Shown: positions 12,689 to 48,551, numbered from the stretch's first letter. The stretch: DNA of 64,000 nt from an uncultured Candidatus Saccharibacteria bacterium (GCA_964365185.1 CAYIOP010000001.1:34675-98674); one strand, 5' to 3'. Notes: generated from the letters alone by a model not told the origin. Translations and numbers: made by a program.

Positions 12689-12690
12689 AT

Positions 12691-12721
12691 TAGGTTTTAG
12701 GTTTTAGGTTATAGGTGATAG
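12691..12721. repeat. heptad-periodic TAG repeat: TAG at 12691, 12698, 12705, 12712, 12719 (exact 7-nt spacing)
   Basis: taggttt taggttt taggtta taggtga tag, read directly. It follows the TAG stop of the M23 peptidase gene and places stops in all three frames. Confidence 0.55.
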
Positions 12722-22500: not shown

Positions 22501-24207
22501 CTATATAATTTCTTTTAAGTAGCATTCCTTGCATAGAATTTCTTTGTAGTCCTCTAGGGTATAGCTGCTTTGGAATTTACTTTGGCATTTAAAACAGGTT
22601 CGTTCCACTAAAGTTAAATCTTTCACCCAGTCCTGGAATTTTTTTTCAATTCGGCAAAAGGGACATTCGCGCGGCAGAGGTAGATTCATTTGTTTTAGGA
22701 AGTCGAGTTCGGACTGAATGATTTTGAAGCCGCGGTCGCATTTAGCGCAACCAATAATTTCATTTAAAATATCGCGTGGAGCGTCTTTGATATGATCCGG
22801 AAGATGTTCCGATTTAATTGAGATTTGATGATTTTTGGGTTCGCTTTCTTTCCATGCGTAGCCGGCATTTAGTGTTTGTTCTTTTGTAAGCGGAAAAAAA
22901 TTATTGGCCATAGTTTCATTATAGGCCCAAGGACTCATCTCGATTGGGAAAAACTCGCCGTATTTATAAATTTGTCCGCGGCTGTTTTTATAAGGCATCT
23001 CATTCATATGATTGATAATTTTTTCACGGAGTTGCCAATATTCCTTTTCCGGATATTTTTTGTTGAAAATCACAAATTTTCCTTTCTTGAGCGATGAACA
23101 GGCAAAGTAGTTAGCGCCGCCAAGCACGGTATTGCAGTATTCGGCGTCGATTAAATTAATTCCACTTTGAGTGGAAAACTTTACTCGATGAGCTCCTTCT
23201 CCGGTTACGCTTACTTCGTAGCAGAGTTCCATATTGTTGCCCCAACTGGTGATATCATAGCAATTCTTAATGGGTGCAACGGCGAGCATAAATAAATATT
23301 TAGAATCAATCGCTCCGGCGACCTCGTAGCACTCCTTACAATTTTTGGACTCAAAAACATAATTGCCGGTACAGTTCGTCACAAATTCCGAACAATATGG
23401 CAGAGGCGGATGTTTTTGCCAATTTTCTTCACTCAATTTTTGAGCCAGTTTATAGTTTTGATACGAGCCCAAGTCGAATTCTTTTAATTTTTTAGCATAT
23501 TCCTCTGGGGTATATTTCTGATTGAAAAATACATACTTTTGATTTCTAAGATTGGTCGAGCCAAAACAATTTTGGCAATTTGCGGAGTCCCGAAGAAAAT
23601 GGCAGTTAAGCGATTCAGTAACCTGCTTACGCAGGCCAACGCACCGGTTATTTTTGAAAGAATGTTCGCAGTCGTAGCAGAGTTCGGAGTGACTAATAAG
23701 TGATGAATCGAGCGTATTTTTGGAGTTAGTGACGTAGAAGCCATAGCTGCAATCTTCACTGAAGTCGGCATGAAACAGGAGGTAGCAATTTTTGAGATTG
23801 CCAACATGATTGTTGTATTCGGAGTTGATCATCGTGGGCAAGGCATTCGAGAGTCCGATGGTCGGTACTTCCAGCCAAAATTTCTTTAATTGCTCAAAGA
23901 AGGGTTGATTAAAGTCATAGTCGCGGCTATATTCATAAGGGTCCCAGTCATCAGACCACCAACATTTAGGGCAGTAGATTTTATAAAGGGACTCTGGAGA
24001 AAACATGGAAAGAGAGTTTTTGCCGCAAAGATCGCATTTCCGCTTGTAAATTTTTAAAAGATTAAAAAAAGCCAGGCGCCTTTGAAAGCGGCACTTGGGA
24101 CAAAAAGTCGGTGGCGGGACTTCAATTTTTTGGTAGAAATTAAAGTCCTCGGGTTCGATGGTGAATTCAGATTTGCAATCTTGACAAATCTTTGTTTCTG
24201 AATTCAT
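22501..24207 (-). CDS. Cys-rich zinc-ribbon family protein (tandem array member 1)
   Basis: MNSETKICQDCKSEFTIEPEDFNFYQKIEVPPPTFCPKCRFQRR at the N-terminus. Internal NCQNCFGSTNLRNQKYVFFNQKYTPEEY, and a C-terminal CPFCR...YKEILCKECYLKEII zinc-ribbon pair. Confidence 0.6.
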   Translation of the reverse strand: MNSETKICQDCKSEFTIEPEDFNFYQKIEVPPPTFCPKCRFQRRLAFFNLLKIYKRKCDLCGKNSLSMFSPESLYKIYCPKCWWSDDWDPYEYSRDYDFNQPFFEQLKKFWLEVPTIGLSNALPTMINSEYNNHVGNLKNCYLLFHADFSEDCSYGFYVTNSKNTLDSSLISHSELCYDCEHSFKNNRCVGLRKQVTESLNCHFLRDSANCQNCFGSTNLRNQKYVFFNQKYTPEEYAKKLKEFDLGSYQNYKLAQKLSEENWQKHPPLPYCSEFVTNCTGNYVFESKNCKECYEVAGAIDSKYLFMLAVAPIKNCYDITSWGNNMELCYEVSVTGEGAHRVKFSTQSGINLIDAEYCNTVLGGANYFACSSLKKGKFVIFNKKYPEKEYWQLREKIINHMNEMPYKNSRGQIYKYGEFFPIEMSPWAYNETMANNFFPLTKEQTLNAGYAWKESEPKNHQISIKSEHLPDHIKDAPRDILNEIIGCAKCDRGFKIIQSELDFLKQMNLPLPRECPFCRIEKKFQDWVKDLTLVERTCFKCQSKFQSSYTLEDYKEILCKECYLKEII

Positions 24208-24316
24208 TTTATTTTTTCCGAAATAAATTTGAGAGGTGATTTTTAAGTAGGGTCCAAAAAGCCCCTACGATAAGCTTAATAGTTCTAATGCGTATTTTGA
24301 TACTTGGATTCATGGA

Positions 24317-26107
24317 TTATTGAATTTCACCTTGATAGCATTCGGAACAGTAAATTATTTCAGGATCATTGTTTGAGTAGCTGGTCATAAATTTATTTTG
24401 ACACTTTGTTTCGCCATGAAGATGGGCGGTTCGATTTTCGTATATTATCTCTCCAGTTGAGTTTTCTGAAGTTCTTCCGCCACACATACAAAATTTTTCA
24501 GATAGATTATAGCGTTCTCGGCCGTTATTTCTGATATGGCGTCGGCATTCGGGGCAAAGTCGCGGAAGGGCGACGTTAATCATTCGGTAGAACTCCAGTT
24601 CCTTGGGAACGATTTTGAAAGCTCTTTTGCATTGGTGGGCACAATCTCCTCTATGAGAGCAGTTGATAATTTTTTCTAATATTTTGTCGTCCGTGTTTTT
24701 TATGTTATCCGGCAGATCTTCGGGATTTATGGTGTTCGCGTAGGTTTTTAGTTCCGCGTCTCGCCACCAAAGTTTTTGTTTTTGAGCTTTTTCTTTGGTG
24801 ATCGGGAAATAGCGCTGAGCTAAGGAGTTATTGTAGGCGCAGGTTGAAAATTCCGGCGGGAAGAATTCGCCGTACTTGTAAATGTGGCCAAGTTCGTTGA
24901 TGTAGGGTGTTTGCTTCATTTGTTCTATAATCTTCGGCACTATTTTTTCATATTCTTCCTTCGTGTATTGTTTATTTAGAATGCAGTACTTTTTTTTTCT
25001 TAACCCAACGCAGCCGAAAAGATGTTCGCATGATTGGCAAGTATCGCAGTATTGTAAATCTAAGCTTTCTCTGGCGCCGTTGGTGAATCTGATGTTTTGG
25101 GAATTAAACGCGCTGCTGGCGTAGATAAGCTCGCATTTTTCGCCTCCAGCGAAGACGTCGTAGCTGTCTTTGATTCTTCGGCCGCAGATTAGGAGATATT
25201 TGCTGTTTTCCGCGCCGTCTCTAACTTCGAAGCTATGCTGACAGTTTTTGGCGTTTTCGATGTCGTTGCCGGTGCAACCAACGGTGTTTTTTTCCGCCAT
25301 ATACTTTCTTGGGATTTTCGATTTAAGTTTTTCGAATTCTTTTTTGGCATCTTTTAAAGTTTTATGACTACCGAGATTTAGCTCCGACATTTTTTTTTCA
25401 TATTCTTTTTTGGAGTAGGGTTGATTGAAAATATGATATTGTTTGTTTCGTAAACCGACGCAGCCGAAACAGTTGGAGCAATTTCGGCAGTCGTAGAGAA
25501 ATTTTGAATCTAAACATTCATTGCATTGTTCAGAAAATAAAAGATTGAAACAGCGAGTACAAGAACAGGATTCATACATGTTTTCGCAAAAAATTAATAT
25601 TGAGACGTCAATGCATTTGCGGCTTACGGCAGGCGTGTCTGAATACATGCAGTCTTCAGAGAGATAGGCTCCGGAGACGAGGTAACAATTTTTTGAGTTT
25701 GAGGCCCAGGTGCAGTAATCGCAGTTTATTGAGTTAATTGAACGTACATTCGCTAAAGGAACAGAGTTTAAGAGTTTTAGAAATTGCTCGAAAAAGGGCT
25801 TTGAAAAATCGTAGTCGAGGCCATATTCGGTCGGATCCCAGGCATCGGACCACCAATAGTCGGAATCGTATATTTTGAGTCCTCTTTCCGAAGGATATCT
25901 AGAAATGAGTTCTTCGCTGTGGCCGGGTGCCTGGCATTTGACGCGGAAGAGCGCACCTTCATTCGACCAAATGAGTTTATGCATCATTCGGCACTTAGGA
26001 CAAAAAGTCGGCGGTGGGACTTTAATTTTTTCGTAGAAAGCGAAGTCATCGGGTTCGATGGTGAAAGTTGATTTGCAGTTTTGGCAAATTCGCGAATCTT
26101 GAGTCAT
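24317..26107 (-). CDS. Cys-rich zinc-ribbon family protein (tandem array member 2)
   Basis: MTQDSRICQNCKSTFTIEPDDFAFYEKIKVPPPTFCPKCR at the N-terminus. Internal CFGCVGLRNKQYHIFNQPYSKKEY and CEHLFGCVGLRKKKYCILNKQYTKEEY, and a C-terminal CPECR...IIYCSECYQGEIQ. Confidence 0.6.
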   Translation of the reverse strand: MTQDSRICQNCKSTFTIEPDDFAFYEKIKVPPPTFCPKCRMMHKLIWSNEGALFRVKCQAPGHSEELISRYPSERGLKIYDSDYWWSDAWDPTEYGLDYDFSKPFFEQFLKLLNSVPLANVRSINSINCDYCTWASNSKNCYLVSGAYLSEDCMYSDTPAVSRKCIDVSILIFCENMYESCSCTRCFNLLFSEQCNECLDSKFLYDCRNCSNCFGCVGLRNKQYHIFNQPYSKKEYEKKMSELNLGSHKTLKDAKKEFEKLKSKIPRKYMAEKNTVGCTGNDIENAKNCQHSFEVRDGAENSKYLLICGRRIKDSYDVFAGGEKCELIYASSAFNSQNIRFTNGARESLDLQYCDTCQSCEHLFGCVGLRKKKYCILNKQYTKEEYEKIVPKIIEQMKQTPYINELGHIYKYGEFFPPEFSTCAYNNSLAQRYFPITKEKAQKQKLWWRDAELKTYANTINPEDLPDNIKNTDDKILEKIINCSHRGDCAHQCKRAFKIVPKELEFYRMINVALPRLCPECRRHIRNNGRERYNLSEKFCMCGGRTSENSTGEIIYENRTAHLHGETKCQNKFMTSYSNNDPEIIYCSECYQGEIQ

Positions 26108-26130
26108 AGATGATTTTTGTTTTTTTGATA

Positions 26131-26162
26131 CTATTCTCTAATTCGCGCGAATTAGAGAATAG
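26131..26162. repeat. 32-nt perfect palindrome between array members 2 and 3
   Basis: ctattctctaattcgc|gcgaattagagaatag, read directly. It is preceded on the + strand by a T-run. Confidence 0.5.
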
Positions 26163-26181
26163 TTGGATAGAAGCGCCTTAA

Positions 26182-27834
26182 TTATGATATTTCGGCTTGA
26201 TAACATTCAACGCAGGAAATTTTTTGAAAAGTAAGTTTGGGTGAATAGTAATGTTCAATCTCTTTTTGGCAATAGACACATTTTCCTTTTTGCGGCTCCA
26301 TCATTAGAGTTAAGGGGTGAAAGCGGTTTAGGGTTCGCCAGTCAAAATGTTGTCTTGGTAGAGGGATTTCATGCTCGCGGTAAAACTGAAGTTCTGACGG
26401 GGCAATATTATAGCTTAATTTGGTTTCTGGACAGATGATGCGTTGTTTAGTAATGTCGTCTTTAACATTATCTATTTTATCCGGTAGGTCTTCCGACCTA
26501 ACTCCAACGTATTCCGGATTTTTAGGTTCTTCCCATTTAGCTCCGAATTTTAAAGCGCCCTCTTTTGTTTCGGGAAACATAATTTGAGCGAGAGAATAGT
26601 TGTATCCAGCATAGGCGGCGCTAAGTGGAAAAAATTTTCCCCACTCCCCTCTTTGCTTCATATCTGTTTCTATCTTTTTCTTTAGCGTTTCGTATTCTTG
26701 TTGGCTATATTGTTTGTTTAAAATGCAATATTTTTTCTTTCTTAATCCCACGCAGCCAAAACAATATTCGCACTCTTCGCAGTTATCCAGATAAGCGCTG
26801 TAGCGACAATAGCCGGTATAGAGATTACAGAAATTTTCATATCCCCATTGGTCCAGGGAACTCCGGGCGCATTTTTCCGATGGGCAGCCCACCGCATCAA
26901 TGAGGTCTTTACCGTCTATTCCCCTTAAAGAATAGCGGCAATTTTCCGATCTTTCCAAAAAATAACAGCTATGGCAGTTTTTGTTTTCCAATAAAAAGTT
27001 GCCGCTGGAATTTGAAATTTGGACATTAAAATGCGCGCGGTGAATCGTGTCTTTTTGAAGATGGCTCCAAAATTCTTTTTTTAGTTTTTCGACAGCGGAA
27101 TAAGAATTGAGTTCAAAACTTTTTATTTTTTTAAAATATTCTTCTTTTGAATAAGGTTGGTTTAAAATATAATATTGTTTATTTCTCAAATTCCAGGACA
27201 TAAAACAGTTTTGACAGTTGCGGCAGTCATAGAGAAAAGCGCCTTCTATACAGTCACGTGAGTTGAAGCAGTGTCGCAGTTTGAATCCCTTAAAACAATA
27301 GAGGCAGTCATAACATTTTTCTAGTTCAAAACAATAAGTTATATCCAGAGAATTTTTCGAGGCGAAAGCCCTGTAGCCATAACTGATATCCTCGATTTTC
27401 CAAGCTGACCTGGTGAGGTAGCAATTTTTTGATTCCCAAACATCGTCGGTCCAGTCACAATTGGTGTTTCTAAGACCGGTTTGATGAGGATGAGGAACTT
27501 TGGCTTGAAGTTCCATTAATTGTTCAATAAAAGGCCGGGAGGCGTCATAATCGCGGCCGTAGGCTAAAGAATCCCAGGCGTCTGAGACAAATTCTTCCCG
27601 TTCGTAGATTGGAAAAGGCACGCTCTCGGGTAAGACGGTAATGAGCCGTTTACCGCTTAGGGCGGAATTGGTGATTCGAAAGCGGCCAAAAATCCAAAAG
27701 GACAAAAGATATTTCCATCGACAGAGTGGGCATTGGTCTGGCGTCGGCAAATCGAATCTACTATAGAATTCTTTGTCGATATCTTCTATTTGAAATTCTT
27801 TTTGGCAGTTTCGGCACGTTTTGTTTTCAGTCAT
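26182..27834 (-). CDS. Cys-rich zinc-ribbon family protein (tandem array member 3)
   Basis: Start placed at M13 (MTENKTCRNCQKEFQIEDIDKEFYSRFDLPTPDQCPLCR) to avoid a 34-nt overlap with the upstream gene. Internal CQNCFMSWNLRNKQYYILNQPYSKEEY and CEYCFGCVGLRKKKYCILNKQYSQQEY, and a C-terminal ISCVECYQAEIS. Confidence 0.55.
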   Translation of the reverse strand: MTENKTCRNCQKEFQIEDIDKEFYSRFDLPTPDQCPLCRWKYLLSFWIFGRFRITNSALSGKRLITVLPESVPFPIYEREEFVSDAWDSLAYGRDYDASRPFIEQLMELQAKVPHPHQTGLRNTNCDWTDDVWESKNCYLTRSAWKIEDISYGYRAFASKNSLDITYCFELEKCYDCLYCFKGFKLRHCFNSRDCIEGAFLYDCRNCQNCFMSWNLRNKQYYILNQPYSKEEYFKKIKSFELNSYSAVEKLKKEFWSHLQKDTIHRAHFNVQISNSSGNFLLENKNCHSCYFLERSENCRYSLRGIDGKDLIDAVGCPSEKCARSSLDQWGYENFCNLYTGYCRYSAYLDNCEECEYCFGCVGLRKKKYCILNKQYSQQEYETLKKKIETDMKQRGEWGKFFPLSAAYAGYNYSLAQIMFPETKEGALKFGAKWEEPKNPEYVGVRSEDLPDKIDNVKDDITKQRIICPETKLSYNIAPSELQFYREHEIPLPRQHFDWRTLNRFHPLTLMMEPQKGKCVYCQKEIEHYYSPKLTFQKISCVECYQAEIS

Positions 27835-27836
27835 AT

Positions 27837-29504
27837 TTAGATAACTTTTTGTTGGTAGCAACTTTCGCAAAAAATAATTTCGGGTTGGTCAGGAGCGAAA
27901 TTTGTTTTAATTGGTTTTTGACAGTTCGCGCAATTGCGATCAAATATTTTAATTGGTCCTCTTCTATTTATCCTAGCTTGGTGGCGACAGTAAAAGCAAT
28001 GCCGCGGGAGAGGTATGGACATGAGTTTATAAAACTGGAATTCAGCTTGAATGATTTTGTAGTTTCGTTTACAAGAAACGCAGGCGAGAATTTCGTCTAT
28101 AATTTTTTCTGAAATTTCGCTAATATCATCTGGAATCTTTTCTGATTTCAGAGTTTCTTTTCCGGTTGTTATTTGAAGATTATCTTCCCAGCGATAACCT
28201 TGGGCAAGGGCTTCGTCTTTAGTGAGCGGCAAGTTGTCTTGCGCAATAGTTTCGTTATAGGCGAAGAGATTAAGAGCTGGTGGGAAGAAGAGTCCATAAT
28301 CCCCCGCCTGAATAAGTTCCTGCTTGATTGTGTTCGTAATTTGCCGATATTCTTTTTCGTCGTAGCGTTTATTTAGAATTGAAAATTTGGAGTTTTTTAT
28401 GCCATCGCAACCGAAACATTCTTGGCTATTACGCGTGGCGAAGCAATAAGCGACATCTTGAGCGTTTTCCACCCACCAAGAGCTGATGACTCTGGCGCTA
28501 TAACCAGTGGCAACTGCTTCCAACAACAATTCGGAGTTGCGGCCATGGCCGATAATGTCGTAGGTGTCTTTTGCTAATTTAACCGAGAAAGAGTAGTTGA
28601 CGTTTTCACAAAAGGCTAATTCAAATGAGGAGCGACAATTTTTTGATTCAAAAATGTAGTCGCCGGTTACAGCCACACTTTTTAGATTGTTGTTTTCGCG
28701 GCGTGGGAATTTAAGAGAAAATTCATCAAAGTTTTTCGCGAATTCTTTTATGGCGCTATAGCTGCCGATAATTGGTTCGACTTTCTTTTTCCACTCTTCT
28801 TTAGAGAGCGGTTCATTTAGAAAATGGTATTTTTTATGGCGAAGATTAACACAACCGAAGCAATTTTGAAGACCGACGCAATTTAAGAGAAATGAGGAAT
28901 CGAGGCATTCGGAAACATTTTGAGACCAAGAGACGCCTTTGCTGTTGTGAATATTTACTCCTTCGTAAATGTTTTCTGATTTATCAATATTGTAGCCGTC
29001 AAAGACATTGCGGCACTGGAGCATTCCGCGAGAATAGGCGCAGTTTTCATTATTGGGTCCGGAGTTGGCGACGAGATAGCAGTCCTTGTTGCCGCCAGCA
29101 AAGTTTTCATACGGACTGTTTACGCTTTTCATTACGTCGCTGCGGTAAAGTGCACATTTAGGAACTGAATGGGTTAATTCTTTGAATTGATCGAAAAAAG
29201 GCCGATTTGAATTATAAACTCGGCCGTAAGAAAAAGAATCCCATTTATCGCTATGCCAGCAATCGGGACAATATACCGTGAAAGTTGAGGAAGGGCTATA
29301 CATTGAAATAATCGGCTCATGGCAGAGATCACAGGAACGATTATATAAAACAAATTCGTTTCGAAATTGGGCCTTTCTTTTAAAGCGGCATTCAGGACAT
29401 AAAATAGGCGCCGGAACGCCCATTTTTTTATAGAAAGTGAAGTCGTCGGGTTCGATGGTGAACCCATTTTTGCAATTCTGACAAATTCTTGAATCTTGGA
29501 TCAT
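27837..29504 (-). CDS. Cys-rich zinc-ribbon family protein (tandem array member 4)
   Basis: MIQDSRICQNCKNGFTIEPDDFTFYKKMGVPAPILCPECRFKRK at the N-terminus. Internal NCFGCVNLRHKKYHFLNEPLSKEEW, and a C-terminal CFYCRHQ...IIFCESCYQQKVI. Confidence 0.6.
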   Translation of the reverse strand: MIQDSRICQNCKNGFTIEPDDFTFYKKMGVPAPILCPECRFKRKAQFRNEFVLYNRSCDLCHEPIISMYSPSSTFTVYCPDCWHSDKWDSFSYGRVYNSNRPFFDQFKELTHSVPKCALYRSDVMKSVNSPYENFAGGNKDCYLVANSGPNNENCAYSRGMLQCRNVFDGYNIDKSENIYEGVNIHNSKGVSWSQNVSECLDSSFLLNCVGLQNCFGCVNLRHKKYHFLNEPLSKEEWKKKVEPIIGSYSAIKEFAKNFDEFSLKFPRRENNNLKSVAVTGDYIFESKNCRSSFELAFCENVNYSFSVKLAKDTYDIIGHGRNSELLLEAVATGYSARVISSWWVENAQDVAYCFATRNSQECFGCDGIKNSKFSILNKRYDEKEYRQITNTIKQELIQAGDYGLFFPPALNLFAYNETIAQDNLPLTKDEALAQGYRWEDNLQITTGKETLKSEKIPDDISEISEKIIDEILACVSCKRNYKIIQAEFQFYKLMSIPLPRHCFYCRHQARINRRGPIKIFDRNCANCQKPIKTNFAPDQPEIIFCESCYQQKVI

Positions 29505-30097: not shown

Positions 30098-31564
30098 TTA
30101 AATAAGTGGTTCAGGTTCTTTGGTGGCTGGAGGATTTGGTTCTTCGGAGTCAGCGGTTCGGGGCTTACCTTCAATAATGGCTTTTTCCTGAGCGCTTCTA
30201 AAAATCGTGGCTTCTTCTTCAGTAATTAGTTTTTTAGCGGCGCCAGCTGGGATAGTGTATTTAGTCCTCGATAATTCCGTAATTTTTTCTTTAAATGTTT
30301 CATGAGTGGGAGGCAAAACCTTTAACGTTTCGGCCGAGAAAGGATCATAGGTTTCACCGTCAATGGTCATTTTGATATAGAATTCCTGCATACCAAGATT
30401 AATCATATCTTTGACTTTAAAAACCGGATCCATTTCGGGTTCGAGTTTGACTGCGTCTTCGCCGCCGACGCGGAAAATAATGATAGTGCCGGTATTGCCT
30501 AAAACAGCTGCCTGAACTCGGGGAATTAACTGAGCGGCGTATTGATGGGCGACAGTAAGGCATAAACCATATTTGCGGGCTTCAGAGAGAATGTTTTCAA
30601 AGGTTTCAGTGACTAAGTTATGAAACTCGTCAACGTAAAGATAGAAATCCGTTCGGGATTCTTCGGGCATGCCAGCTCGGGCCATTCCAGCTTGCTTGAT
30701 TTTAGTAATAAACATCGCACCCAAAAAACTTGAGTTTTCTTCGCCTAGTCGTCCTTTACAGAGATTAATAAAGAGAATTTTCTTTTTTCTCATTACTTCT
30801 TCTATATCAATTTTATTTTCTTTTTGACCAAAGATGTTTCGTAGTAATGGGTCGGAGAGAAATTGGCCAAGTTTATTTACTAGTGGAATAATAGCGTCGG
30901 TGTCGAATTTTTCCGACCAATCGGCGAATTCAATGGCCCAAAAACGTTTAACCATATCGTCTTCAATATATTCCACCACTTTCTGACGATAGTTGCGGTC
31001 GGTAAGCATTGAAATCATGCCGCGCATGGTGGCGTGAGGATAGTCGAGAAGAGCCAGACAAGTGAATCTGAAAACGTGTTCTAATCGCGGAGTCCAGTTG
31101 GCGCCAAATTGCTTTTCCATGACTTCAATTAAACCTTGAGTGAGTTGATGTTTGAAGGCCGGATCAACATTGGCTAAGGGATTAAATGAAACTGGATTAT
31201 CCAAATCGGTTGGGTCGATAATAACCACATCTTCAATTCTTTCCTTTGGGATGAATTTCAGGATTTCTTCGATTACATCTCCGTGCGGGTCCATAAGACA
31301 GAGGCCGTGGCCATACGCAACATCTTGTCGAATTAATAATTCCAAAAGTTTGGATTTGCCGACACCGCTTTTGCCGATAATATACATATGTCGGCGACGG
31401 TCTTTTCTTTTGATGCCAAAAATAAATTCCTTTTTTTCAAGCGCGGCCACATAGTTAGTGCGACCGATGAAGGAAATTTCCTTCGGGTCAATACGACCGT
31501 AGATTGGAAGCTCCGGTGGAGGCGGAGCGTATTTGATAATTTGAATTTTTCCGGCTTTACTCAT
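30098..31564 (-). CDS. DUF87-type P-loop NTPase (HerA/TraD/VirD4-like), paralog 2
   Basis: [40 protein letters not shown] and AHQ. The N-terminal 250 aa are about 45% identical to the ATPase at 1102..2922. It has no zinc-ribbon tail. Confidence 0.7.
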   Translation of the reverse strand: MSKAGKIQIIKYAPPPPELPIYGRIDPKEISFIGRTNYVAALEKKEFIFGIKRKDRRRHMYIIGKSGVGKSKLLELLIRQDVAYGHGLCLMDPHGDVIEEILKFIPKERIEDVVIIDPTDLDNPVSFNPLANVDPAFKHQLTQGLIEVMEKQFGANWTPRLEHVFRFTCLALLDYPHATMRGMISMLTDRNYRQKVVEYIEDDMVKRFWAIEFADWSEKFDTDAIIPLVNKLGQFLSDPLLRNIFGQKENKIDIEEVMRKKKILFINLCKGRLGEENSSFLGAMFITKIKQAGMARAGMPEESRTDFYLYVDEFHNLVTETFENILSEARKYGLCLTVAHQYAAQLIPRVQAAVLGNTGTIIIFRVGGEDAVKLEPEMDPVFKVKDMINLGMQEFYIKMTIDGETYDPFSAETLKVLPPTHETFKEKITELSRTKYTIPAGAAKKLITEEEATIFRSAQEKAIIEGKPRTADSEEPNPPATKEPEPLI

Positions 31565-35630: not shown

Positions 35631-35636
35631 GGAGAT

Positions 35637-35667
35637 TAGGTGATAGGTTTTAGGTTTTAGGTGGCAG
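35637..35667. repeat. heptad-periodic (T)AGG repeat between secD and secF
   Basis: tagg tgatagg ttttagg ttttagg tggcagg, with TAG at 35637, 35644, 35651 and 35658. Confidence 0.5.
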
Positions 35668-36913: not shown

Positions 36914-37207
36914 TGAGATTAGGTTTAAGGTGGCAGGTTATGGGTGATAGGTTGCTACGAAAGTTGGAATTTATTAACGATACGATTATAAAGGAAGGCG
37001 CTTAAATTGTAAACTCCTCTGAATAAGAGTTTTGTGAGTAATTTTTTTCTAGAGAGAAAGGTCTAAGTTAGAAAATTATTTATAAAACTTGATCGTTTTA
37101 TTTTTCGAATAGTGCCATTTTTATTTGAGTGGAATGAAATAAAAAAACGGGATGTAAATTTCTTTACATCCCGCAATATAATGAATGTGGTTTGTCGTCC
37201 GTGGGCG

Positions 37208-39492: not shown

Positions 39493-40641
39493 ATGAAATC
39501 CGTAATTCTATACGCATATCCGCCGGAGCCGGATGGACTTTCGCAACAGGGTGATATGCTCTATCGGGGACTCAAAGAAATTGGCGAGGAGATACTCCCC
39601 TGCCACCTCTCGAGCGAATTTCAGAAGGAGTGGATTTATAAATTTTTAAAGCCCGACGTGGCCATCGGTGTTGGATTTTGGGGACACACCCAGGATATTA
39701 TTTTGCATCCGCAGAAATTCGGTATTCAGCCAGTGCCGTGGCTACTCGCGGATGGCTGGGTGGCGAATTACCACAAAGAAATCGGCGAGTTGCCACTTGT
39801 ATTTACCACGAGTGATTGGGTGGCTCGAACTTTTGCTCGGGATGGGGTGGATACTAAAAATTTTCAAACGCTCTATATTGGGCTTGATACTGAACTTTTT
39901 AAACCCATTCCACGCAGTGACCCGAGAGTGAAATTGATTCGAGAGATGATTGGAGTACGTGAGGATGAAGTGATGATTATGACTGCTGGAGGCGATGTGA
40001 CTTCTAAAGGCGCGCAGGAGGTTTTTAGGGCCTTAAAAAGAGTGGATGCCGAGTTTAAAAATTGGAAGTATGTTTGTAAAATTTGGGGCGGAGCAAGCGC
40101 GGATGACCACTACGACGACGAGATGGCTTTGATTGAGGAGTTAGGCGAGGAGGCGAAAGAAAAAATAATTTACCTTGAAGGTTCAATGTCTCGTGAGTTT
40201 ATGCCTTTACTTTTAAACGCCTGCGATATTTACGCGGCGCCTTCGCGGCTGGAGGGATTTGGAATGATACAAGTAGAGGCAATGGCGTGTGGTAAGCCAG
40301 TGATTTCAATTGACGAGATGGGGCCAAAGGAGACGATATTGCATGGCGAGACGGGTTTCTTGGCTAAAGTGGCTTCAACTGTGGATTTAACCGAGGAGTG
40401 GGCCTATGTGGGCTGGGGATTTGAGGAGGATCATAAAATTCAGTTTGAAAAACCCAAGACGTTTGCTTATCGGGCTGACGCAGACCAGATTGCGGAGTAT
40501 TTGCTTAAATTACTTACAGATAAAGATTTGAGAGAAAAAATGGGTGCTCGGGCTCGTGAACACGCGGTAGAAAAATTTGAGTACCGAAAAATCGCCAAGC
40601 AGATGACGGATGTGATTAAGGAGAAGTTTAATTTGAACTAG
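39493..40641 (+). CDS. GT4-family glycosyltransferase
   Basis: C-terminal EGFGMIQVEAMACGKPVIS, the GT-B E-x7-E motif region. Confidence 0.7.
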   Translation: MKSVILYAYPPEPDGLSQQGDMLYRGLKEIGEEILPCHLSSEFQKEWIYKFLKPDVAIGVGFWGHTQDIILHPQKFGIQPVPWLLADGWVANYHKEIGELPLVFTTSDWVARTFARDGVDTKNFQTLYIGLDTELFKPIPRSDPRVKLIREMIGVREDEVMIMTAGGDVTSKGAQEVFRALKRVDAEFKNWKYVCKIWGGASADDHYDDEMALIEELGEEAKEKIIYLEGSMSREFMPLLLNACDIYAAPSRLEGFGMIQVEAMACGKPVISIDEMGPKETILHGETGFLAKVASTVDLTEEWAYVGWGFEEDHKIQFEKPKTFAYRADADQIAEYLLKLLTDKDLREKMGARAREHAVEKFEYRKIAKQMTDVIKEKFNLN

Positions 40642-40662
40642 GATTCTAATTGGAAAATTTTT

Positions 40663-41673
40663 ATGGATAAAGGAATTTTTACTCAGCTTCCCGGAAAAAT
40701 AGTGGAATTAGATTCTCGATTTAAATATGTAATGGCGCTGGCTTTGAATTCTCGCTCGAATTATATGAATGGAATTATTCGATGTATTACTAAACGAGAT
40801 GGAGATTTGCAAATTAAGGGATACGCAGATCGAAGTGTTTTGTATCAAGTTAGGGGTGATTCTCTTAAAAATTTCTATATAGAAAACAAATTGAACATTA
40901 ATGGAGAAGAAGAATTAATTAATCAATTTAGTGGTGATGATTGGGATTTTATGGGTTTTGAAGACCCTGATATTTGGATTGATGATATGGATGATTTTAC
41001 GCATGTTTATTTTACAATTTCGCTCTGGAATAAAAAGCAGCGGCATACGTTCTGTCATTTGGGACATGCCGAAGGCGCAAATTTAGATTCATTAGAAATG
41101 ACAGAACCGGTGCTTATTGTTGATGAAAAAATTCGGAGGGCCAAGGAACCCTCGATTGCTCCGGTGAATAAAGGAGGGTTTCGATATAATTTAATCGAAT
41201 CTCGGTCAGATAAAGGACAATTTTCCTATTCTACAGTAAGGGTTGCAATTACTGAAAATATGGGCGAACCCTGGAAATTTGGTGAGACGGTATTGCATCC
41301 GGCCGAAAATAATATTCCGTGGATTGGCGGACACGCTTCACCTGGACCTCTACTGTCTCAAAATTTTATAGATGTTGGAGATGGAAAGTGTTTAGGTTTT
41401 TTAAATGGGCGAGAAGTTAATCAAAAAATTGGAGAAAATGTGCGGTATGGAACATTCTCTATTGGCCTTTTCATATATGACTACGAGAATGGAAAAATTG
41501 ATTGGGTCTCATCTAAACCTTTTATTCAGGATAGTGAGGCGAAAACTATAACTTTTGCCAGCCAATTTGTTCAAACTGGTGAGAATGACGGAATTTTATA
41601 CGCCCACGTTGATGATTCTTTTGTTCGGGCTTATGAAATTAGAGCAAATTTAATTAAACCTCTGTTGATTTAA
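40663..41673 (+). CDS. hypothetical protein, possible beta-propeller glycosidase-like (weak)
   Basis: 336 aa with an acidic DWDFMGFEDPDIWIDD stretch reminiscent of GH32/43/130-type propellers. It is flanked by 51-nt direct repeats derived from the GT4 3' end. Confidence 0.25.
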   Translation: MDKGIFTQLPGKIVELDSRFKYVMALALNSRSNYMNGIIRCITKRDGDLQIKGYADRSVLYQVRGDSLKNFYIENKLNINGEEELINQFSGDDWDFMGFEDPDIWIDDMDDFTHVYFTISLWNKKQRHTFCHLGHAEGANLDSLEMTEPVLIVDEKIRRAKEPSIAPVNKGGFRYNLIESRSDKGQFSYSTVRVAITENMGEPWKFGETVLHPAENNIPWIGGHASPGPLLSQNFIDVGDGKCLGFLNGREVNQKIGENVRYGTFSIGLFIYDYENGKIDWVSSKPFIQDSEAKTITFASQFVQTGENDGILYAHVDDSFVRAYEIRANLIKPLLI

Positions 41674-41680
41674 CTTGATT

Positions 41681-41731
41681 ATCGCCAAACAAATGGCGGA
41701 TAAGATTAAGGAGAAGTTTAATTTGAACTAG
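41681..41731 (+). repeat. 51-nt duplicate of the 3' end of the GT4 gene (direct repeat partner of 40591..40641)
   Basis: atcgccaaacaaatggcggataagattaaggagaagtttaatttgaactag versus atcgccaagcagatgacggatgtgattaaggagaagtttaatttgaactag. The last 30 nt are identical, and the copy encodes ...IKEKFNLN*. Confidence 0.6.
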
Positions 41732-41770
41732 TTTATTTGGTGCATTGGTAATAACTGGAAACGTTCATTT

Positions 41771-41804
41771 TATACACTACTCTGCGATCGTAAAGTAGTG
41801 TATA
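41771..41804. repeat. hairpin repeat copy A (tatacactact-ctgcgatcgtaa-agtagtgtata)
   Basis: 11-bp perfect stem with a loop containing gcgatcg. A near-identical copy lies at 42431..42469. Confidence 0.55.
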
Positions 41805-41828
41805 AATAAAACATCAGTATTAAGTATT

Positions 41829-42419
41829 ATGTTAAAAACTAGAAGTTTGACGTCTAAAATTTTGGAAGTTGTAAGCGAGGGTGTAATCTCAACTTTTGAT
41901 GTTATCGGCGCGATTTTAGAGTCCGGTTACGGCGCTTCTTATGCGAAACTTGATGCTAGTGTTCGACGCTCTGAGGCGAGGCGTCATAATCGTGAATTGG
42001 AGCTTCGCAATAGACAGAGATTTAGTAATTTAATTTCTAAATTGAAACGGGACGGTTTAATTACTGGCGATAAGCGATCTTTAAAGATCACCGAGGCCGG
42101 ACGTAAGAAATTTTTAAAAATTCGGGAAATTGAGCGAAGTAGAGTTATTCACTCTCCTTTTGGATATCAAGCTAAAGTAAGTCGAAATCTTACAATCGTT
42201 ATTTTTGATATCCCGGAGAAGGAAAAGGTTAAAAGAAATTGGCTGCGAGCGGTTTTACTAAATCTCGGTTTTAAATTGCTTCAGAAGAGTGTTTGGATCG
42301 GTCGAGTTATTATTCCTCGGGAGTTTTTGAAAGATCTTCGAAATATGAGAATTTTGGAGTACATTCACATATTTTCTGTATCTCGATCGGGGACAATTGA
42401 AAATGATAAGGATGGATAG
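41829..42419 (+). CDS. hypothetical protein with winged-helix-like N-terminus; C-terminal region loosely Cas2/VapD-like (speculative)
   Basis: 196 aa. RFSNLISKLKRDGLITGDKRSLKITEAGRKKF looks like an HTH wing. TIVIFDIPEKEKVKRNWLRAVLLNLGFKLLQKSVWIG resembles the beta-alpha-beta core of the Cas2 fold. The gene is flanked by hairpin repeats A and B. Confidence 0.3.
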   Translation: MLKTRSLTSKILEVVSEGVISTFDVIGAILESGYGASYAKLDASVRRSEARRHNRELELRNRQRFSNLISKLKRDGLITGDKRSLKITEAGRKKFLKIREIERSRVIHSPFGYQAKVSRNLTIVIFDIPEKEKVKRNWLRAVLLNLGFKLLQKSVWIGRVIIPREFLKDLRNMRILEYIHIFSVSRSGTIENDKDG

Positions 42420-42430
42420 TTTCCCTTATA

Positions 42431-42469
42431 AATATACACTACTATGCGATCGTAGATTGGTGTATATTT
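42431..42469. repeat. hairpin repeat copy B (aatatacac-tactatgcgatcgtagattg-gtgtatatt)
   Basis: Shares tatacactact[c/a]tgcgatcgta with copy A, in direct orientation and 660 nt apart. Confidence 0.55.
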
Positions 42470-42590
42470 ATGATGAAAATGGAAATTGATTTAGATTACT
42501 AATAGCTAAGCAGCAACTGGAATCCGCGGCGCCGTAATAGACCATAAGCCCTCCATTCTTTAGAACTGCTCCTTCGGGGTTTGAGCATTT
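42468..42590 (-). pseudogene. GH130 C-terminal gene fragment (40 codons) duplicating the 3' end of 44849..45823
   Basis: The minus-strand translation KCSNPEGAVLKNGGLMVYYGAADSSCCLAISNLNQFPFSS* matches FPEGAVIKNGKLMVYYGAADSSCCLAIYNFNNFLK*. An in-frame stop lies upstream of the fragment. A 24-nt stretch, tccgcggcgccgtaatagaccat, is identical in the two copies. Confidence 0.55.
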
Positions 42591-42609
42591 CTAGTATCGC
42601 ATCTCCATT

Positions 42610-43056
42610 TTATACTCTCCTATTTTTTAAATACTCAGGAAAAGTTTTTCGTTTATCTTTTTCGGTTTCGTCCGTTTTTTCTTCCAATATTGCCTTCAGA
42701 TATCCAAGTGGATCAGCTGGATCAATGTCACTCACATTAAATTCTTTTACAACCTTAAAATATTCTGGTTTGTACATTTCCGAAGGATGTTGTCTTCGGG
42801 GACCTTCATATATTTCTAGCATCGCATCTCCATTTTCAAAAAATACTAACATTGCAAAATTCTTAAGTTCTTTATCTTCCCCTATCTTAAGATACGCCGG
42901 ATCACGTCCTTGATGGAGGAATATCTCTTTGTTAGCGCTACCTCCCTCGCTATATTTATCTATACTTTTAAAATATTCATAAAGAGTTTCTGGCGTAAAT
43001 TTTTTGCTTTCTGATTCTTTAATTTGTTCCGATTCTTCTGGGTTTTCGTACTTCAT
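42610..43056 (-). CDS. hypothetical acidic protein
   Basis: 148-aa ORF, E/K-rich, with no motif recognised. A 22-nt internal segment (42813-42836) is duplicated just downstream of its stop (42590-42612). Confidence 0.3.
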   Translation of the reverse strand: MKYENPEESEQIKESESKKFTPETLYEYFKSIDKYSEGGSANKEIFLHQGRDPAYLKIGEDKELKNFAMLVFFENGDAMLEIYEGPRRQHPSEMYKPEYFKVVKEFNVSDIDPADPLGYLKAILEEKTDETEKDKRKTFPEYLKNRRV

Positions 43057-43153
43057 GATTATAATTATTTCTGATTATTATTTTTTGTCAATTTTTGTCT
43101 GTTTAGTACTATTTGTAAAACGTACTAACGCGAGAAAATTTGTACGCCAAAAG

Positions 43154-43181
43154 TTGACAAACAGGGGAATTATGCTATAAT
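43154..43181 (+). promoter_or_regulatory. sigma70-type promoter TTGACA-N16-TATAAT with upstream inverted-repeat operator candidate
   Basis: ttgaca at 43154-43159 and tataat at 43176-43181. Upstream, ttagtac-N12-gtactaa forms an inverted repeat at about 43104-43130. Confidence 0.45.
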
Positions 43182-43271
43182 CCCCTTGTTCTTGTCTCTC
43201 TTGTTATTTGATAAGTGAATAGCCGCTGTCTATGGGATAATCCATGGTCAGCGCAGTATTAACCATTTTTT

Positions 43272-44408
43272 TTGGCTATACGCCAAGAAAGGAAGTCCAC
43301 GATGACGGTTTCGACCAACATCGCTAGTTCTGCAAATATCTACTTCGGAGGTGAGTTGGTTCCGACCAACTCAGCTGGAGATATGGTATTTGCGATTGCT
43401 GGGACGCTGAGTAACGAAGTTATCAGTCGTCTGTCCAGGAAACTTTCGCGGAAACCAATGAGTTTCCAAGAACTTATTTATTCTTGTGACTACGAACTAT
43501 TGAGGCACTTGGCGACGGATGTCTATCTGCTTGTGATCCAACCAGGTCATGAAAAGCAATTCACGAATGAGGTAAGGGCTTTGGAATTGTGGAGGCAGGG
43601 CGCCCAGCGAGTACTTCTTATCCGCGGAGGTGCGTTGATTCTGGCAGAAAAAATGTCTGAATACACCCGTCGTAAGATTACGTCAAATTTGCCATCAAAC
43701 CGCATCTTGAAATGCCTTTGTGCTTTCGACGGTGTATCTATTCCAGGTCTGACAGGATTTGATCTTACTTCCGCATTTTCTGCGATTGCACTTGCACTGG
43801 AGCAGGTTGTGGAGGAAAAGGTTAAGGTACTACTCAAACTGGCTATCGTTGACACACTGATCAACGGACGTCGCCTTGAAGACTGCGTACCGATTGCGCT
43901 TCCCGGCCAGACCGCCTATCTCATTGGTGGTCTGTCGACTACCTCGCCCGATTCTCAGTCGTTTATACTAGGAACCAACCTTACTCGCGATGCATTTGAG
44001 CGTCTCTTGGGATTAGTGAATCCGGCGTCGGAGTTTCGTGAGCTAATCGCTGGCATCAAGCCGATTCTTGACCACATCATTACTGACACGTATGCCTTAG
44101 TGCATAATCGTGGAGGTGAGACGAAAGTCAAGGCGGTGGTCCTATGTAGTCATGGTGACCGGAAACTCCTCCTCACTCGCGGAGGCAGTATGCCTATTGT
44201 GAGAGAGGAGAGTGGAGCATTCTTTGTCCTCGACAACTTTGTCGACGAGATGTCCGACCAATACCCAGGTTTCAAACTTGGCGAAGCTTTGTACTCTGTC
44301 CGACAGCAGATCGCCAACGTTATCAGGATAAGAGCTGAGGTGCTCGGCGTGCTTGCTAATGCGTCACAGATGATTTCAACCATTTGGGCCGGAGGTAAGC
44401 AGTCATGA
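43272..44408 (+). CDS. hypothetical protein of GC-rich island (likely true start ATG 43302 with AGGAAG RBS)
   Basis: 378-aa ORF with clearly higher G+C and different codon choice (ctg, cgt, acc) than the flanks. No recognisable motif. Its stop overlaps the next start (ATGA). Confidence 0.45.
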   Translation: MAIRQERKSTMTVSTNIASSANIYFGGELVPTNSAGDMVFAIAGTLSNEVISRLSRKLSRKPMSFQELIYSCDYELLRHLATDVYLLVIQPGHEKQFTNEVRALELWRQGAQRVLLIRGGALILAEKMSEYTRRKITSNLPSNRILKCLCAFDGVSIPGLTGFDLTSAFSAIALALEQVVEEKVKVLLKLAIVDTLINGRRLEDCVPIALPGQTAYLIGGLSTTSPDSQSFILGTNLTRDAFERLLGLVNPASEFRELIAGIKPILDHIITDTYALVHNRGGETKVKAVVLCSHGDRKLLLTRGGSMPIVREESGAFFVLDNFVDEMSDQYPGFKLGEALYSVRQQIANVIRIRAEVLGVLANASQMISTIWAGGKQS

Positions 44409-44692
44409 TGATGGAATACAGAATTATGCTGATTGTTATCTTTATGATGGCATGCCTATGCTTTTTTGGGAGCATTCGACGTCTCGTAAGCACCGACAAA
44501 GAAAAGTACATTACTTTCGGAATCTTCTTCCTGTTTGTGGGGATAGCGTCAGCCATTGCAATTAGCCTCGAAGGGCAATACTATGCCGAAGGGCAATACT
44601 CTACTTTTTCAGGCGTCGACTATTCCATCCAATTCTTCGTGTTGGTTCTAGAGTCTGGATATCTCTTCCATGTCACCAAATGGGGAGAGTAA
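44405..44692 (+). CDS. small membrane protein (95 aa, 2-3 TM) translationally coupled to upstream island gene
   Basis: MMMEYRIMLIVIFMMACLCFFGS...FGIFFLFVGIASAIAISL hydrophobic helices, with an ATGA overlap at 44405-44408. Confidence 0.45.
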   Translation: MMMEYRIMLIVIFMMACLCFFGSIRRLVSTDKEKYITFGIFFLFVGIASAIAISLEGQYYAEGQYSTFSGVDYSIQFFVLVLESGYLFHVTKWGE

Positions 44693-44816
44693 GCAGACCC
44701 GTCTTTCTGAATGACGGATTGATACGTCCTTCATCTGGGATGCTGACTCTTTCCGCCAGCAGTATGAAGCGCTCCTGACGAGACCACAAAAATAGCAATT
44801 TTTCAGAAACCTATAA

Positions 44817-44850
44817 CCGGCTCCGAGACAATGTCTTGGAGCCGCTTTTT
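44817..44850 (+). terminator. Rho-independent terminator of island operon
   Basis: ccggctccgagac-aat-gtcttggagccg followed by cttttt. The T-run overlaps the stop of the convergent GH130 gene. Confidence 0.45.
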
Positions 44851-45823
44851 ACTTTAGAAAATTATTGAAGTTGTAGATAGCTAGACAGCAGCTGGAGTCC
44901 GCGGCGCCGTAATAGACCATTAGCTTTCCATTTTTTATCACCGCGCCTTCTGGAAAAGTGACATTATTTACAATCCCCTTTCTTTCATAAAGTTTTTGAG
45001 GTTCTAGGATTGGTCTTTCAGATTGCCACAAAACTTCTCGTGGATTTTTTAAGTCCAAAAGCGCGGCGTGGATGGGCCACACTTTTTTTCCTATAGCAGG
45101 ACCACAATAAATTAAAAGCCAGCCCTTGCTAGTTTTGATTGGTGGTGCGCCTAGCTCTGGACCGCGCAGAGCGCCGCGGGGAGGCAGGAGCACGGCGTGT
45201 TTATCAAAGTTGGTGAAAATTTTACCCCAATAATTCTTGGGAGGATGGAACAGTTCTTTTGTGTCCTTAAATTCAGTGTAGAGAATAGAGGAGTCCACTT
45301 TGTCGGGATGCCAGGTGAATAACATTCCGATTTTTCCGTTAATTTTCGCTGGGAAAATTGCCGCAGCTTTGGCTCGGACTTGGTCTGGTTTTGGCCCAAT
45401 AAAGCCATGCTTCTGAATTTTCTTAAAATCTTTGGTTGTGGCTAGAGCGATTCCGGGTACTTCCTTTTTGGAATATGCCGGTTTTGACATGGCTGTGTAG
45501 AAAATGTAATAGGTGTCACCGAGTTTGGTTATTCGAGGGTCTTCGCAGCCGAATTGATTCCAGGGGTGATCTGGTTTTATAAGGGGTTTTGCCGAGCGGG
45601 AAAAATTTATGCCATCCTTACTAGTGGCGTAGCCGATGGAAGAAATGTAATTAGTATAACCACCGGCAGGTCTTGGCTTGAATCCGGCTCGAACCGCGCG
45701 ATAGACCATATGGAAAATTCCATTTTCATAGACCACGGATGGATTAAAAACCGAACCGGCTTCCCAAAAGTTTTTGGGGTTGGGTTTTAAAATTGGATTT
45801 CTTGGGTAGCGGATAAGTTTCAT
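44849..45823 (-). CDS. GH130-family glycoside hydrolase/phosphorylase (5-bladed beta-propeller)
   Basis: NPIL.P....WE..SVFNPSVVYENGIFHMVYRAV, GYATSKDG and GCEDPRITKLGDTYYIFYTA are hallmark GH130 motifs. Confidence 0.7.
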   Translation of the reverse strand: MKLIRYPRNPILKPNPKNFWEAGSVFNPSVVYENGIFHMVYRAVRAGFKPRPAGGYTNYISSIGYATSKDGINFSRSAKPLIKPDHPWNQFGCEDPRITKLGDTYYIFYTAMSKPAYSKKEVPGIALATTKDFKKIQKHGFIGPKPDQVRAKAAAIFPAKINGKIGMLFTWHPDKVDSSILYTEFKDTKELFHPPKNYWGKIFTNFDKHAVLLPPRGALRGPELGAPPIKTSKGWLLIYCGPAIGKKVWPIHAALLDLKNPREVLWQSERPILEPQKLYERKGIVNNVTFPEGAVIKNGKLMVYYGAADSSCCLAIYNFNNFLK

Positions 45824-48158: not shown

Positions 48159-48551
48159 TTACTCTGGTTTAACTCTTTTTCTATCTACTAGAATTAGTAT
48201 CCCAGCGATAATCAACATAATTTTTGGCATACTGATTAATGTTGGTGCAAGTAGACCAATACCAATTGCTATAATTGCTCCTAATTTGCGTGTCGTTTCT
48301 AGACTAATACGAAGCCAACTCCAATTAAGATCAAGTACGCCATTAATTAGAAATAATGTTATAAAACTTACTATTCCGCCCGTAAGTTCCATAAAACCTA
48401 TTACTTCCTGGTTAAAAGCAGTCAAAATTCCAGTCGTAGCATAACTAGCATCAAATATTAAAAAATACAGACCATGCAAAACTAGGAGAGTGGCGGAGAT
48501 TATTATGAGTATAAAACCTATTTTTGTAAGCTTTTCCATTTTACAGTTCAA
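48159..48551 (-). CDS. hypothetical small membrane protein (4 TM)
   Basis: 130 aa and almost entirely hydrophobic. Its start overlaps the upstream gene's stop. Confidence 0.35.
   Translation of the reverse strand: MNCKMEKLTKIGFILIIISATLLVLHGLYFLIFDASYATTGILTAFNQEVIGFMELTGGIVSFITLFLINGVLDLNWSWLRISLETTRKLGAIIAIGIGLLAPTLISMPKIMLIIAGILILVDRKRVKPE

Follow-up and report, generated by a model that had tools for sequence, protein, structure and literature searches.

In a 64,000-nucleotide stretch of DNA from an uncultured Candidatus Saccharibacteria bacterium (GCA_964365185.1 CAYIOP010000001.1:34675-98674; the whole stretch is called the window below), a 2.26 kb insert (42591-44848) lies directly behind the 3' end of a GH130 gene, in the slot between this gene and a convergent GT4 glycosyltransferase gene, and a diverged duplicate of the GH130 gene end is stranded on its far side. 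We propose, with a probability of roughly 0.55, that the insert arrived by a homology-anchored insertion which displaced the resident GH130 3' end, and that the slot is a hotspot of gene gain from both sides. The layout carries this reading: the insert directly follows a conserved gene segment, the displaced homologous end stands downstream in direct orientation, and the GT4 gene shows the same arrangement.

The intact GH130 gene (44849..45823, minus strand, 324 aa; Pfam PF04041, E 2.9e-46) is the third in a GH130/GT/GDE_C cluster. Its codons ~290-322 (PEGAV...NNF; 44857..44953, minus strand) recur as a direct repeat at 42482-42578, with 77% identity over 97 nt and no gaps; BLAST reports the same repeat at 83% identity over 77 nt (E 8.9e-17). 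The second copy belongs to a stranded 3'-end fragment of 40 codons plus stop (42468..42590, minus strand), in which tblastn with the GH130 protein finds 27 of 32 residues identical (E 9e-15). On the minus strand, the fragment reads stop-KCSN-PEGAVLKNGGLMVYYGAADSSCCLAISNLNQFPFSS-stop and the gene reads ...NNVTF-PEGAVIKNGKLMVYYGAADSSCCLAIYNFNNFLK-stop, their C-terminal ends being ...AISNLNQFPFSS-stop and ...AIYNFNNFLK-stop, respectively. An earlier note, made from the sequence alone, had described the 3' terminal 40 codons of the gene as duplicated at 42468..42590 and preserved as an open reading frame (ORF) fragment behind an in-frame stop. The duplication is borne out, as is the stop, an in-frame TAG preceding the 40-codon open fragment; its extent is smaller, with true homology over ~33 codons and a fragment tail that is 2 codons longer. 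The homology starts abruptly at a P codon (42578) and fades 2-3 codons short of the stops. The fragment aligns to GH130 residues 291-322 and keeps Y304, Y305, G306, D309 and A315, which are invariant in a 15-sequence family alignment; the conserved GH130 C-terminal motif YYGAAD is present in both gene and fragment. A tblastn search of 40642-44848 with the three GH130 paralogues (E <= 10) revealed no GH130 similarity other than these residues 291-322. The upstream remnants that would mark the fragment as the end of a decayed fourth GH130 paralogue, the outcome against which the earlier note had set its own reading, were thus not found.

The way in which the two copies diverged suggests that both once belonged to working genes. 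Over 31 aligned codons they differ at 22 nucleotides and at only 5 amino acids, with no stops and no indels. Simulations reject the neutral decay of an identical duplicate when all differences are taken as neutral (P < 5e-5), and do so marginally for half of them (P ~0.04). A duplicate made in place should have at least half of the changes on the branch that evolves neutrally, and most of the divergence would therefore have arisen while both copies stood in working genes. The copies would then derive from two functional alleles, as far as a small sample of 31 codons can tell. Gene and fragment are mutual closest relatives, with 76% identity to each other versus 61-68% to the orthologues over the same 93 nt. 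Polarisation with four outgroups gave 8 gene-like sites, 7 fragment-like sites and 7 ties, showing changes on both branches, and the family-typical NLN is retained by the fragment and lost from the gene. A 23-nt identical run encoding MVYYGAAD (42523..42545 = 44898-44920) is a candidate core for crossover or gene conversion. With 22 differences spread over 93 positions, a run of this length has P = 0.017, and relatives vary there at synonymous sites. The run encodes the most conserved GH130 motif, so that either conservation or gene conversion could account for its identity. A comparison of GH130 identity to two orthologue clades in sliding windows displayed a weak shift near residue 240, which we did not take to be a recombination breakpoint.

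We compared the slot with the loci of the closest GH130 orthologues, which are 69-77% identical and syntenic (L006, L009, L010, L011 and L015). The GH130 and convergent GT4 genes overlap by 8 nt in L009 and L010 and are 4 nt apart in L015. The uninterrupted GH130 end which the earlier note had proposed to seek in related genomes is therefore present in these three, where GH130 is directly convergent with GT4. In L006, synteny is complete from DnaK to SecDF, with one 344-aa ORF between GH130 and GT4 that has no homology to ORF336, the ORF found beside GT4 in the window and described below; in L011, an 85-aa ORF occupies this position. The insert is absent from all five syntenic relatives, and the duplicated gene end is absent from the four closest (L006, L009, L010 and L011). 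In the window, the slot holds ~4.2 kb of extra DNA with five ORFs, which shows that it is variable across lineages, and the insert is, on these sequence comparisons, lineage-specific. The useful relatives came from protein searches combined with contig look-ups; when the GH130 protein was used to scan GTDB species genomes and JGI metagenomes, the only relatives returned were 32-37% identical and did not help to locate an empty site. In L010 (83-162, 180-1315), only a short match to the 5' end of the middle GH130 paralogue is present, beside the last GH130 gene. In L009 (1-279, 1166-1806), a module encoding a PaaX-like regulator has a GDE_C-like remnant on one side and the GH130 gene on the other. 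Around the GH130 cluster, deletions and relocations seem to be frequent in these relatives.

The window itself is core chromosomal DNA of a member of the Patescibacteria (candidate phyla radiation, CPR) from Hainich groundwater, with genes for SecDF, DnaK-DnaJ-GrpE-HrcA, CysRS, DnaB and YchF, and it includes a glycan gene cluster of three GH130 genes, two GT4-type glycosyltransferase genes and a GDE_C-like hydrolase gene. The nearest named relatives of the GH130 protein are metagenome-assembled genomes of Portnoybacteria and of the 'Patescibacteria group'. The source metagenome is of low coverage (4-5x according to contig names; samples Hain_H43_01um). A contig from replicate R1 (L001) is 99.99% identical to the window in DNA over 8.6 kb, a contig from R2 (L012) agrees with it in gene order between GT4 and the end of GH130, and contigs from R3 and Logan match parts of it. 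Because the replicate assemblies agree on the arrangement, an assembly artefact is unlikely.

The insert comprises ORF148, a pair of divergent promoters, an ORF378-ORF95 operon and a terminator. ORF148 (42610..43056, minus strand) is an acidic, G+C-poor (0.34) orphan. It is separated from ORF378 by a 215-nt spacer with both promoter matches, in a divergent promoter region at 43064..43181: the predicted ORF148 promoter matches the sigma-70 consensus at 11 of 12 positions (43091-43064, minus strand) and the predicted ORF378 promoter at 12 of 12, with an extended -10 TG (43154-43181, plus strand). ORF378 encodes 368 aa from an ATG at 43302 (43302..44408, plus strand; the ORF opens at 43272). ORF95 (44405..44692, plus strand) encodes a small hydrophobic, probably membrane protein and overlaps the ORF378 stop by 4 nt, so that the two are probably one operon. 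A strong intrinsic terminator (44818..44844, plus strand; 12-bp stem with 8 G-C pairs, followed by a T run) closes the ORF378-ORF95 unit and abuts the GH130 stop codon.

None of ORF148, ORF378, ORF95 and ORF336 has a match in Pfam, PHROGs, NCBIfam or PADLOC. The earlier note had also called for the phyletic distribution of the island genes, which turned out to be narrow for ORF148 and ORF378. Both match only themselves among 5.8e9 proteins, and an exhaustive HMMER scan of 1.8e9 cluster representatives retrieved a single homologue of ORF378, P0123, which is 45% identical over the full length and lies on a 2.4-kb JGI contig. By these searches, both cargo genes appear to be near-orphans. No match to ORF378 was found by tblastn in 50,697 phage and 72,556 plasmid records, nor any relative in IMG/VR. 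ORF378 consists of a ~185-aa module duplicated in tandem, with a Smith-Waterman score of 90 compared with 29 +/- 4 for shuffled sequences; BLASTP had missed this repeat, which is also present in P0123. ORF378 is a real protein. For surveys of orphan genes in CPR bacteria of groundwater, we flag it as a very rare family, notable for its two known members, its internal duplication and its perfect consensus promoter (predicted). An AlphaFold prediction of full-length ORF378 from the two-sequence alignment reached a predicted local distance difference test score of 34 and yielded no usable functional lead, and a sequence search of the PDB with the ORF378 profile gave no match. Our guess is that the cargo is a small membrane-associated accessory module, formed by ORF378 and its partner ORF95, outside the glycan pathway.

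The bracketed DNA is compositionally mixed, with one clearly deviant operon. The G+C content of ORF378 plus ORF95 (43272-44692) is 0.478 versus a window mean of 0.403, which is the global maximum (z 3.2, top 0.4% of equal-sized windows), and among the 53 scored ORFs, ORF378 ranks first in G+C (0.490) and last in synonymous-codon likelihood (z -3.2). In contrast, G+C is low (0.338) in the left third of the bracketed DNA (42591-43271), which is made up of ORF148 and the promoter region. The higher G+C and different codon usage that had been attributed to the whole of 43060..44850 thus hold, and at a significant level, for ORF378 and ORF95, and fail for the ORF148 part. The rest of the window had been taken to be lower in G+C; the genes to the right of the insert (GH130, GH130 and GDE_C) are themselves above average, with a mean of 0.446. 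Two of their three orthologues in L006 (GDE_C and GH130-341) also exceed the average of that locus, which indicates that most of this right-hand elevation belongs to the gene families.

The distal junction of the insert bears a different kind of mark. The segment 42572..42616 (minus strand) is a filler copied from within ORF148 (from 42812-42836 and onward). It stands right after the ORF148 stop and matches its source at 24 of 25 nt (96%) before a looser continuation to CCCCGAAG; the start of the source, at 42836, lies 225 nt upstream. The filler reads NGDAILEM-LKPRR, and its counterpart in the source is NGDAMLEIYEGPRR. It overlaps the start of the GH130 fragment by a 7-nt microhomology, CCCGAAG (42572-42578). 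A microhomology joint with locally templated filler points to illegitimate recombination or template switching, and is unlike a site-specific att boundary. The joint on the GT4 side has no clear microhomology. We searched for integrases, recombinases and transposases in the three cargo ORFs, ORF336 and the PaaX-like ORF (Pfam, PHROGs, NCBIfam and PADLOC) and in ~30 flanking ORFs (Pfam). No recombinase or transposase was found in any of them, and no inverted repeats were present at 42591/44848. Insertion of a transposon or insertion sequence was rejected on these grounds, together with the length (97 nt) and divergence of the repeat.

The other side of the slot repeats this organization. The GT4 gene, identified by Pfam and synteny, is intact and convergent with the GH130 gene (39493..40641, plus strand). 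A stranded copy of its last 17 codons plus stop is found at 41681..41731 (plus strand) and is 90% identical to 40591-40641 over 51 nt including the stop, with 28 nt identical at the 3' end (P 0.085 for this run). The two copies bracket a second insert (40642..41680, plus strand) containing ORF336 (40663-41673, G+C 0.36), from which they are separated by spacers of 21 nt and 7 nt. In a profile comparison (hhalign), ORF336 aligned collinearly with GH130 from end to end, W..G.EDP and the C-terminal motifs included, at E 0.028 and a probability of only 1.8%. ORF336 may, as judged from this alignment, be a very divergent GH130-like beta-propeller and the fourth family member in the locus; a search of PDB sequences with its profile returned a single insignificant match (E 0.085).

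Between the two stranded gene ends lies a PaaX-like regulator gene (41829-42419; Pfam PaaX_M, E 7.8e-13), which forms with its flanking palindromes a segment at 41771..42466 (plus strand). The protein combines a Cas2-like domain with a winged helix; a role for the Cas2-like domain in integration was considered and dropped, as there was no evidence for it. The two palindrome copies (41771-41811 and 42426-42466; 34-41 nt, near-perfect) read TATACACTAC..GCGATCG..GTAGTGTATA and have no other copies in the window. Rfam returned only a sub-threshold hairpin match on the palindrome and a chance CRISPR-repeat match. In L009, the PaaX orthologue has the same palindrome upstream (1766-1806), between the orthologue and the GH130 gene, and the palindrome is probably the operator of the regulator. 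The L009 orthologue is about as diverged as the other core genes, so that the middle piece looks like resident DNA and the PaaX-like gene is the probable resident centre of the slot. On each side, going outward from this centre, a stranded gene end is followed by cargo and then by the intact gene, the two halves being mirror images. Scaled to the distance of the L009 orthologue, the divergence of the GT4 pair (~0.5) is similar to that of the GH130 pair (~0.6; hand arithmetic).

We propose the following course of events. The insertion site would be the ancestral tail-to-tail meeting point of the GH130 and GT4 genes, and the agent most likely host recombination, not a site-specific integrase. 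The incoming DNA would have carried a moderately diverged relative's working GH130 3' end followed by cargo, and would have paired with the resident GH130 gene. It may have been linear, as in homology-facilitated illegitimate recombination, or a circle entering by a single Campbell-type crossover in the identical core; the data fit either route equally. Within the resident gene, ~35 codons short of the stop, the far end would have been joined illegitimately at the 7-nt microhomology. The GH130 gene would thereby stay intact, while the last ~35 resident codons would end up 2.4 kb downstream as a nonfunctional remnant. Acting from the GT4 side as well, this process would have placed ORF336 between two copies of the last 51 nt of GT4, leaving the PaaX-like regulator in the middle as older resident DNA. 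The 23- and 28-nt identical runs are close to the minimum length that RecA needs. Natural competence with homologous integration has been shown in cultivated Patescibacteria (PMC10633639), and homology-facilitated illegitimate recombination with displaced or orphaned 3' ends has been proposed at type VI secretion system (T6SS) and Rhs loci (PMC5361080; also PMC3240628). What we infer from this layout is the donor, the pathway of recombination, the direction in which events ran and the identity of the resident copy.

The suggestion of the earlier note that the locus is horizontally acquired DNA integrated at a gene 3' end is thus largely retained, for the insert is lineage-specific, its cargo near-orphan, part of it a compositional extreme and the old gene end displaced; we consider that it was probably acquired horizontally. 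What we could not uphold is that it bears the classic signature of an integrative element: it has no integrase, transposase, phage or plasmid gene, the repeats are 23% diverged, the joint is a microhomology with filler, and the composition is mixed.

A degraded or satellite element of the e14/icd type, inserted as a circle, would nonetheless produce much of what is observed, if its site-specific recombinase had been lost or lay elsewhere in the genome, its attP carried a substitute GH130 3' end and the 23-nt run were the att core. The geometry is that of icd-e14-icdC (PMC13626634), in which the gene is intact where it enters the element and a pseudogene of its C-terminal part lies at the other end; the identical core is non-random, and the insert is self-contained with its own promoters and terminator. 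We regard this explanation as unlikely, given that neither the insert nor the ~30 flanking ORFs hold a recombinase, phage or plasmid gene, that 2.26 kb is tiny for such an element, that a protein like ORF378 with one homologue in 15 billion proteins is unlike part of a spreading element, that the far junction lacks a clean att boundary, and that a second bracket with a different repeat exists on the GT4 side. Since an integrase was sought and not found in the insert or flanking ORFs, we do not file the locus as an integrative element. It is improbable, too, that the fragment is the remnant of an extra tandem GH130 paralogue that lost its first ~290 codons, by replacement or deletion, on the arrival of the orphan genes, with no integration into the present gene. 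The locus does contain three GH130 paralogues, two of them adjacent, relatives L010 and L009 show rearrangement and partial paralogue deletion, and the synonymous-biased divergence would fit two once-functional genes equally well. Yet no upstream GH130 remnants exist, in none of the five syntenic relatives is the GH130 gene followed by a paralogue, and the fragment is closer to the adjacent gene's end than to any orthologue; moreover, two illegitimate joints would be needed, one exactly at the stop codon, as well as an independent truncated GT4 paralogue for the mirror duplication.

The inner 0.9 kb (41681-42590: GT4 end, PaaX and GH130 end) could instead be the newcomer, a single fragment of a relative's GT4-PaaX-GH130 junction that was pasted illegitimately into an older accessory region containing ORF336 and ORF148-378-95. 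This would take one event in place of two, both stranded ends are similarly diverged from the resident genes (~0.5-0.6 of the L009 distance), and the position of the PaaX module differs among genomes (L009). We find it slightly more doubtful still, because it needs two non-homologous joints and explains neither the in-register landing, each end beside its intact counterpart on the same strand, nor the ORF148-derived filler and microhomology, and because the slot is empty or filled with unrelated ORFs in relatives, so that in no known genome are ORF336 and ORF148-378-95 the older residents. This explanation and that of a lost paralogue each require more coincidences than a homology-anchored insertion. 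If the repeat had been made in place, by a long target or tandem duplication at insertion, and the extra copy had decayed neutrally, the geometry alone would be satisfied, and several of the changes specific to the fragment are indeed nonsynonymous (K to G, N to Q). Such an origin is very unlikely in view of the ratio of 22 nucleotide to 5 amino-acid differences, which the simulations reject as neutral decay at the levels given above, of a 23% divergence that would date the event almost to the split from relatives without the repeat, and of the lack of a transposase or terminal inverted repeats. A chimeric assembly of co-occurring strains, to which a metagenome of 4-5x coverage might lend itself, has next to no likelihood: the separate assemblies (L001, L012, R3 and Logan) agree, and the longest identical repeats, of 23-28 nt, are judged to be below typical final assembly k-mers.

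Several points weigh against homology-anchored insertion as well. The selection test is based on 31 codons, and its half-neutral case is only marginally rejected. With changes on both branches, the outgroup polarisation does not establish which copy was the resident one. We found neither a donor genome nor a strain with an empty site nor an excised form, all recorded contigs of the population sharing the same arrangement, and an integrase encoded beyond the 64-kb window might have acted in trans. ORF148, which is G+C-poor, and ORF378, which is G+C-rich, may differ in origin, and the insert may thus be a composite. Finally, the simple model does not account for the 25-40-nt filler from ORF148, which would require a further step, either template switching or a scar left earlier.

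The scar is of a known kind and does not define a new system; what the locus adds is the two-sided layout, the preserved joints and the orphan cargo in a CPR genome. Prophage e14 and phage 21 in icd of Escherichia coli (icdC) are alike in that the insert lies in the 3' end of a protein-coding gene and a substitute 3' end keeps the gene functional. There, too, the displaced C-terminal part is preserved at the other end in direct orientation, and the copies differ mainly by synonymous or conservative changes, so that recombination between them would give a chimeric functional gene (PMC13626634, citing Hill et al. 1989). Prophage e14 is 15 kb long, encodes its own integrase and is excised upon SOS induction; the present insert differs by its 2.26 kb of orphan genes, its lack of a recombinase, its microhomology joint with filler and its 23% diverged repeats. 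The sequential C-terminal displacement at Rhs, contact-dependent inhibition (CDI) and T6SS loci resembles our locus in that a conserved segment serves as anchor and the other end joins illegitimately without an integrase, the old 3' end and old cargo being shifted downstream and accumulating as orphaned fragments (PMC5361080; PMC3240628). Those loci encode toxin-immunity systems under diversifying selection whose variable toxin tip is swapped, whereas here the anchor is the conserved end of a glycan-metabolism enzyme gene, the cargo consists of unrelated orphans and both convergent genes bear scars. Genomic islets at hotspots likewise occupy a slot between conserved syntenic core genes with different, unrelated genes in each lineage. 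Islets of this type are usually swapped by a double homologous crossover in the flanks, which leaves no scar; in our locus, by contrast, partial gene-end duplicates remain and record the joints.

Patescibacteria have very small genomes, and their gene gain is poorly documented. The joints of at least two gene-gain events are preserved here at one convergent gene pair, so that the pathway can be read from its scars; it appears to combine homology at one end with microhomology at the other, without an integrase. One could go further and picture both bracketed modules as products of a cassette cycle without integrase in naturally competent Patescibacteria, in which the flanking gene-end repeats recombine to release a small circle of one gene end plus cargo, and the circle, or its linear form acquired from lysed relatives, re-enters related genomes by a RecA crossover at the conserved gene end. 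We hold this to be a long shot. If it were true, the 23- and 28-nt cores would be just long enough, and convergent core-gene 3' ends would be landing pads at which reduced symbiont genomes sample orphan genes.

Some other features of the window were recorded. Four tandem paralogous genes (555-596 aa) at 22501-29504 on the minus strand have several conserved DNA blocks in common; one of them gave weak treble-clef zinc-finger matches at both ends and no other family match. A 35-nt G/T-rich motif, AGATTAGGTTTTAGGTTTTAGGTTATAGGTGATAG, occurs in copies 71-86% identical at 353-387, 12687-12721, 35633-35667 and 36916-36950, mostly at gene boundaries. ORF130 (48159-48551), a hydrophobic ORF between the GDE_C-like gene and a gene for a 737-aa glycosyltransferase, is a second compositional outlier, with a G+C of 0.33 and a codon-fit z of -2.9; the corresponding slot in L006 has an 89-aa ORF, and this position may vary between lineages as well. 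A gene for a TrwB/VirD4-like coupling ATPase of the type involved in type IV secretion and DNA transfer (30098-31564), some 10 kb away from the locus, is conserved in L006 and may have a bearing on the entry or exit of DNA in these cells.

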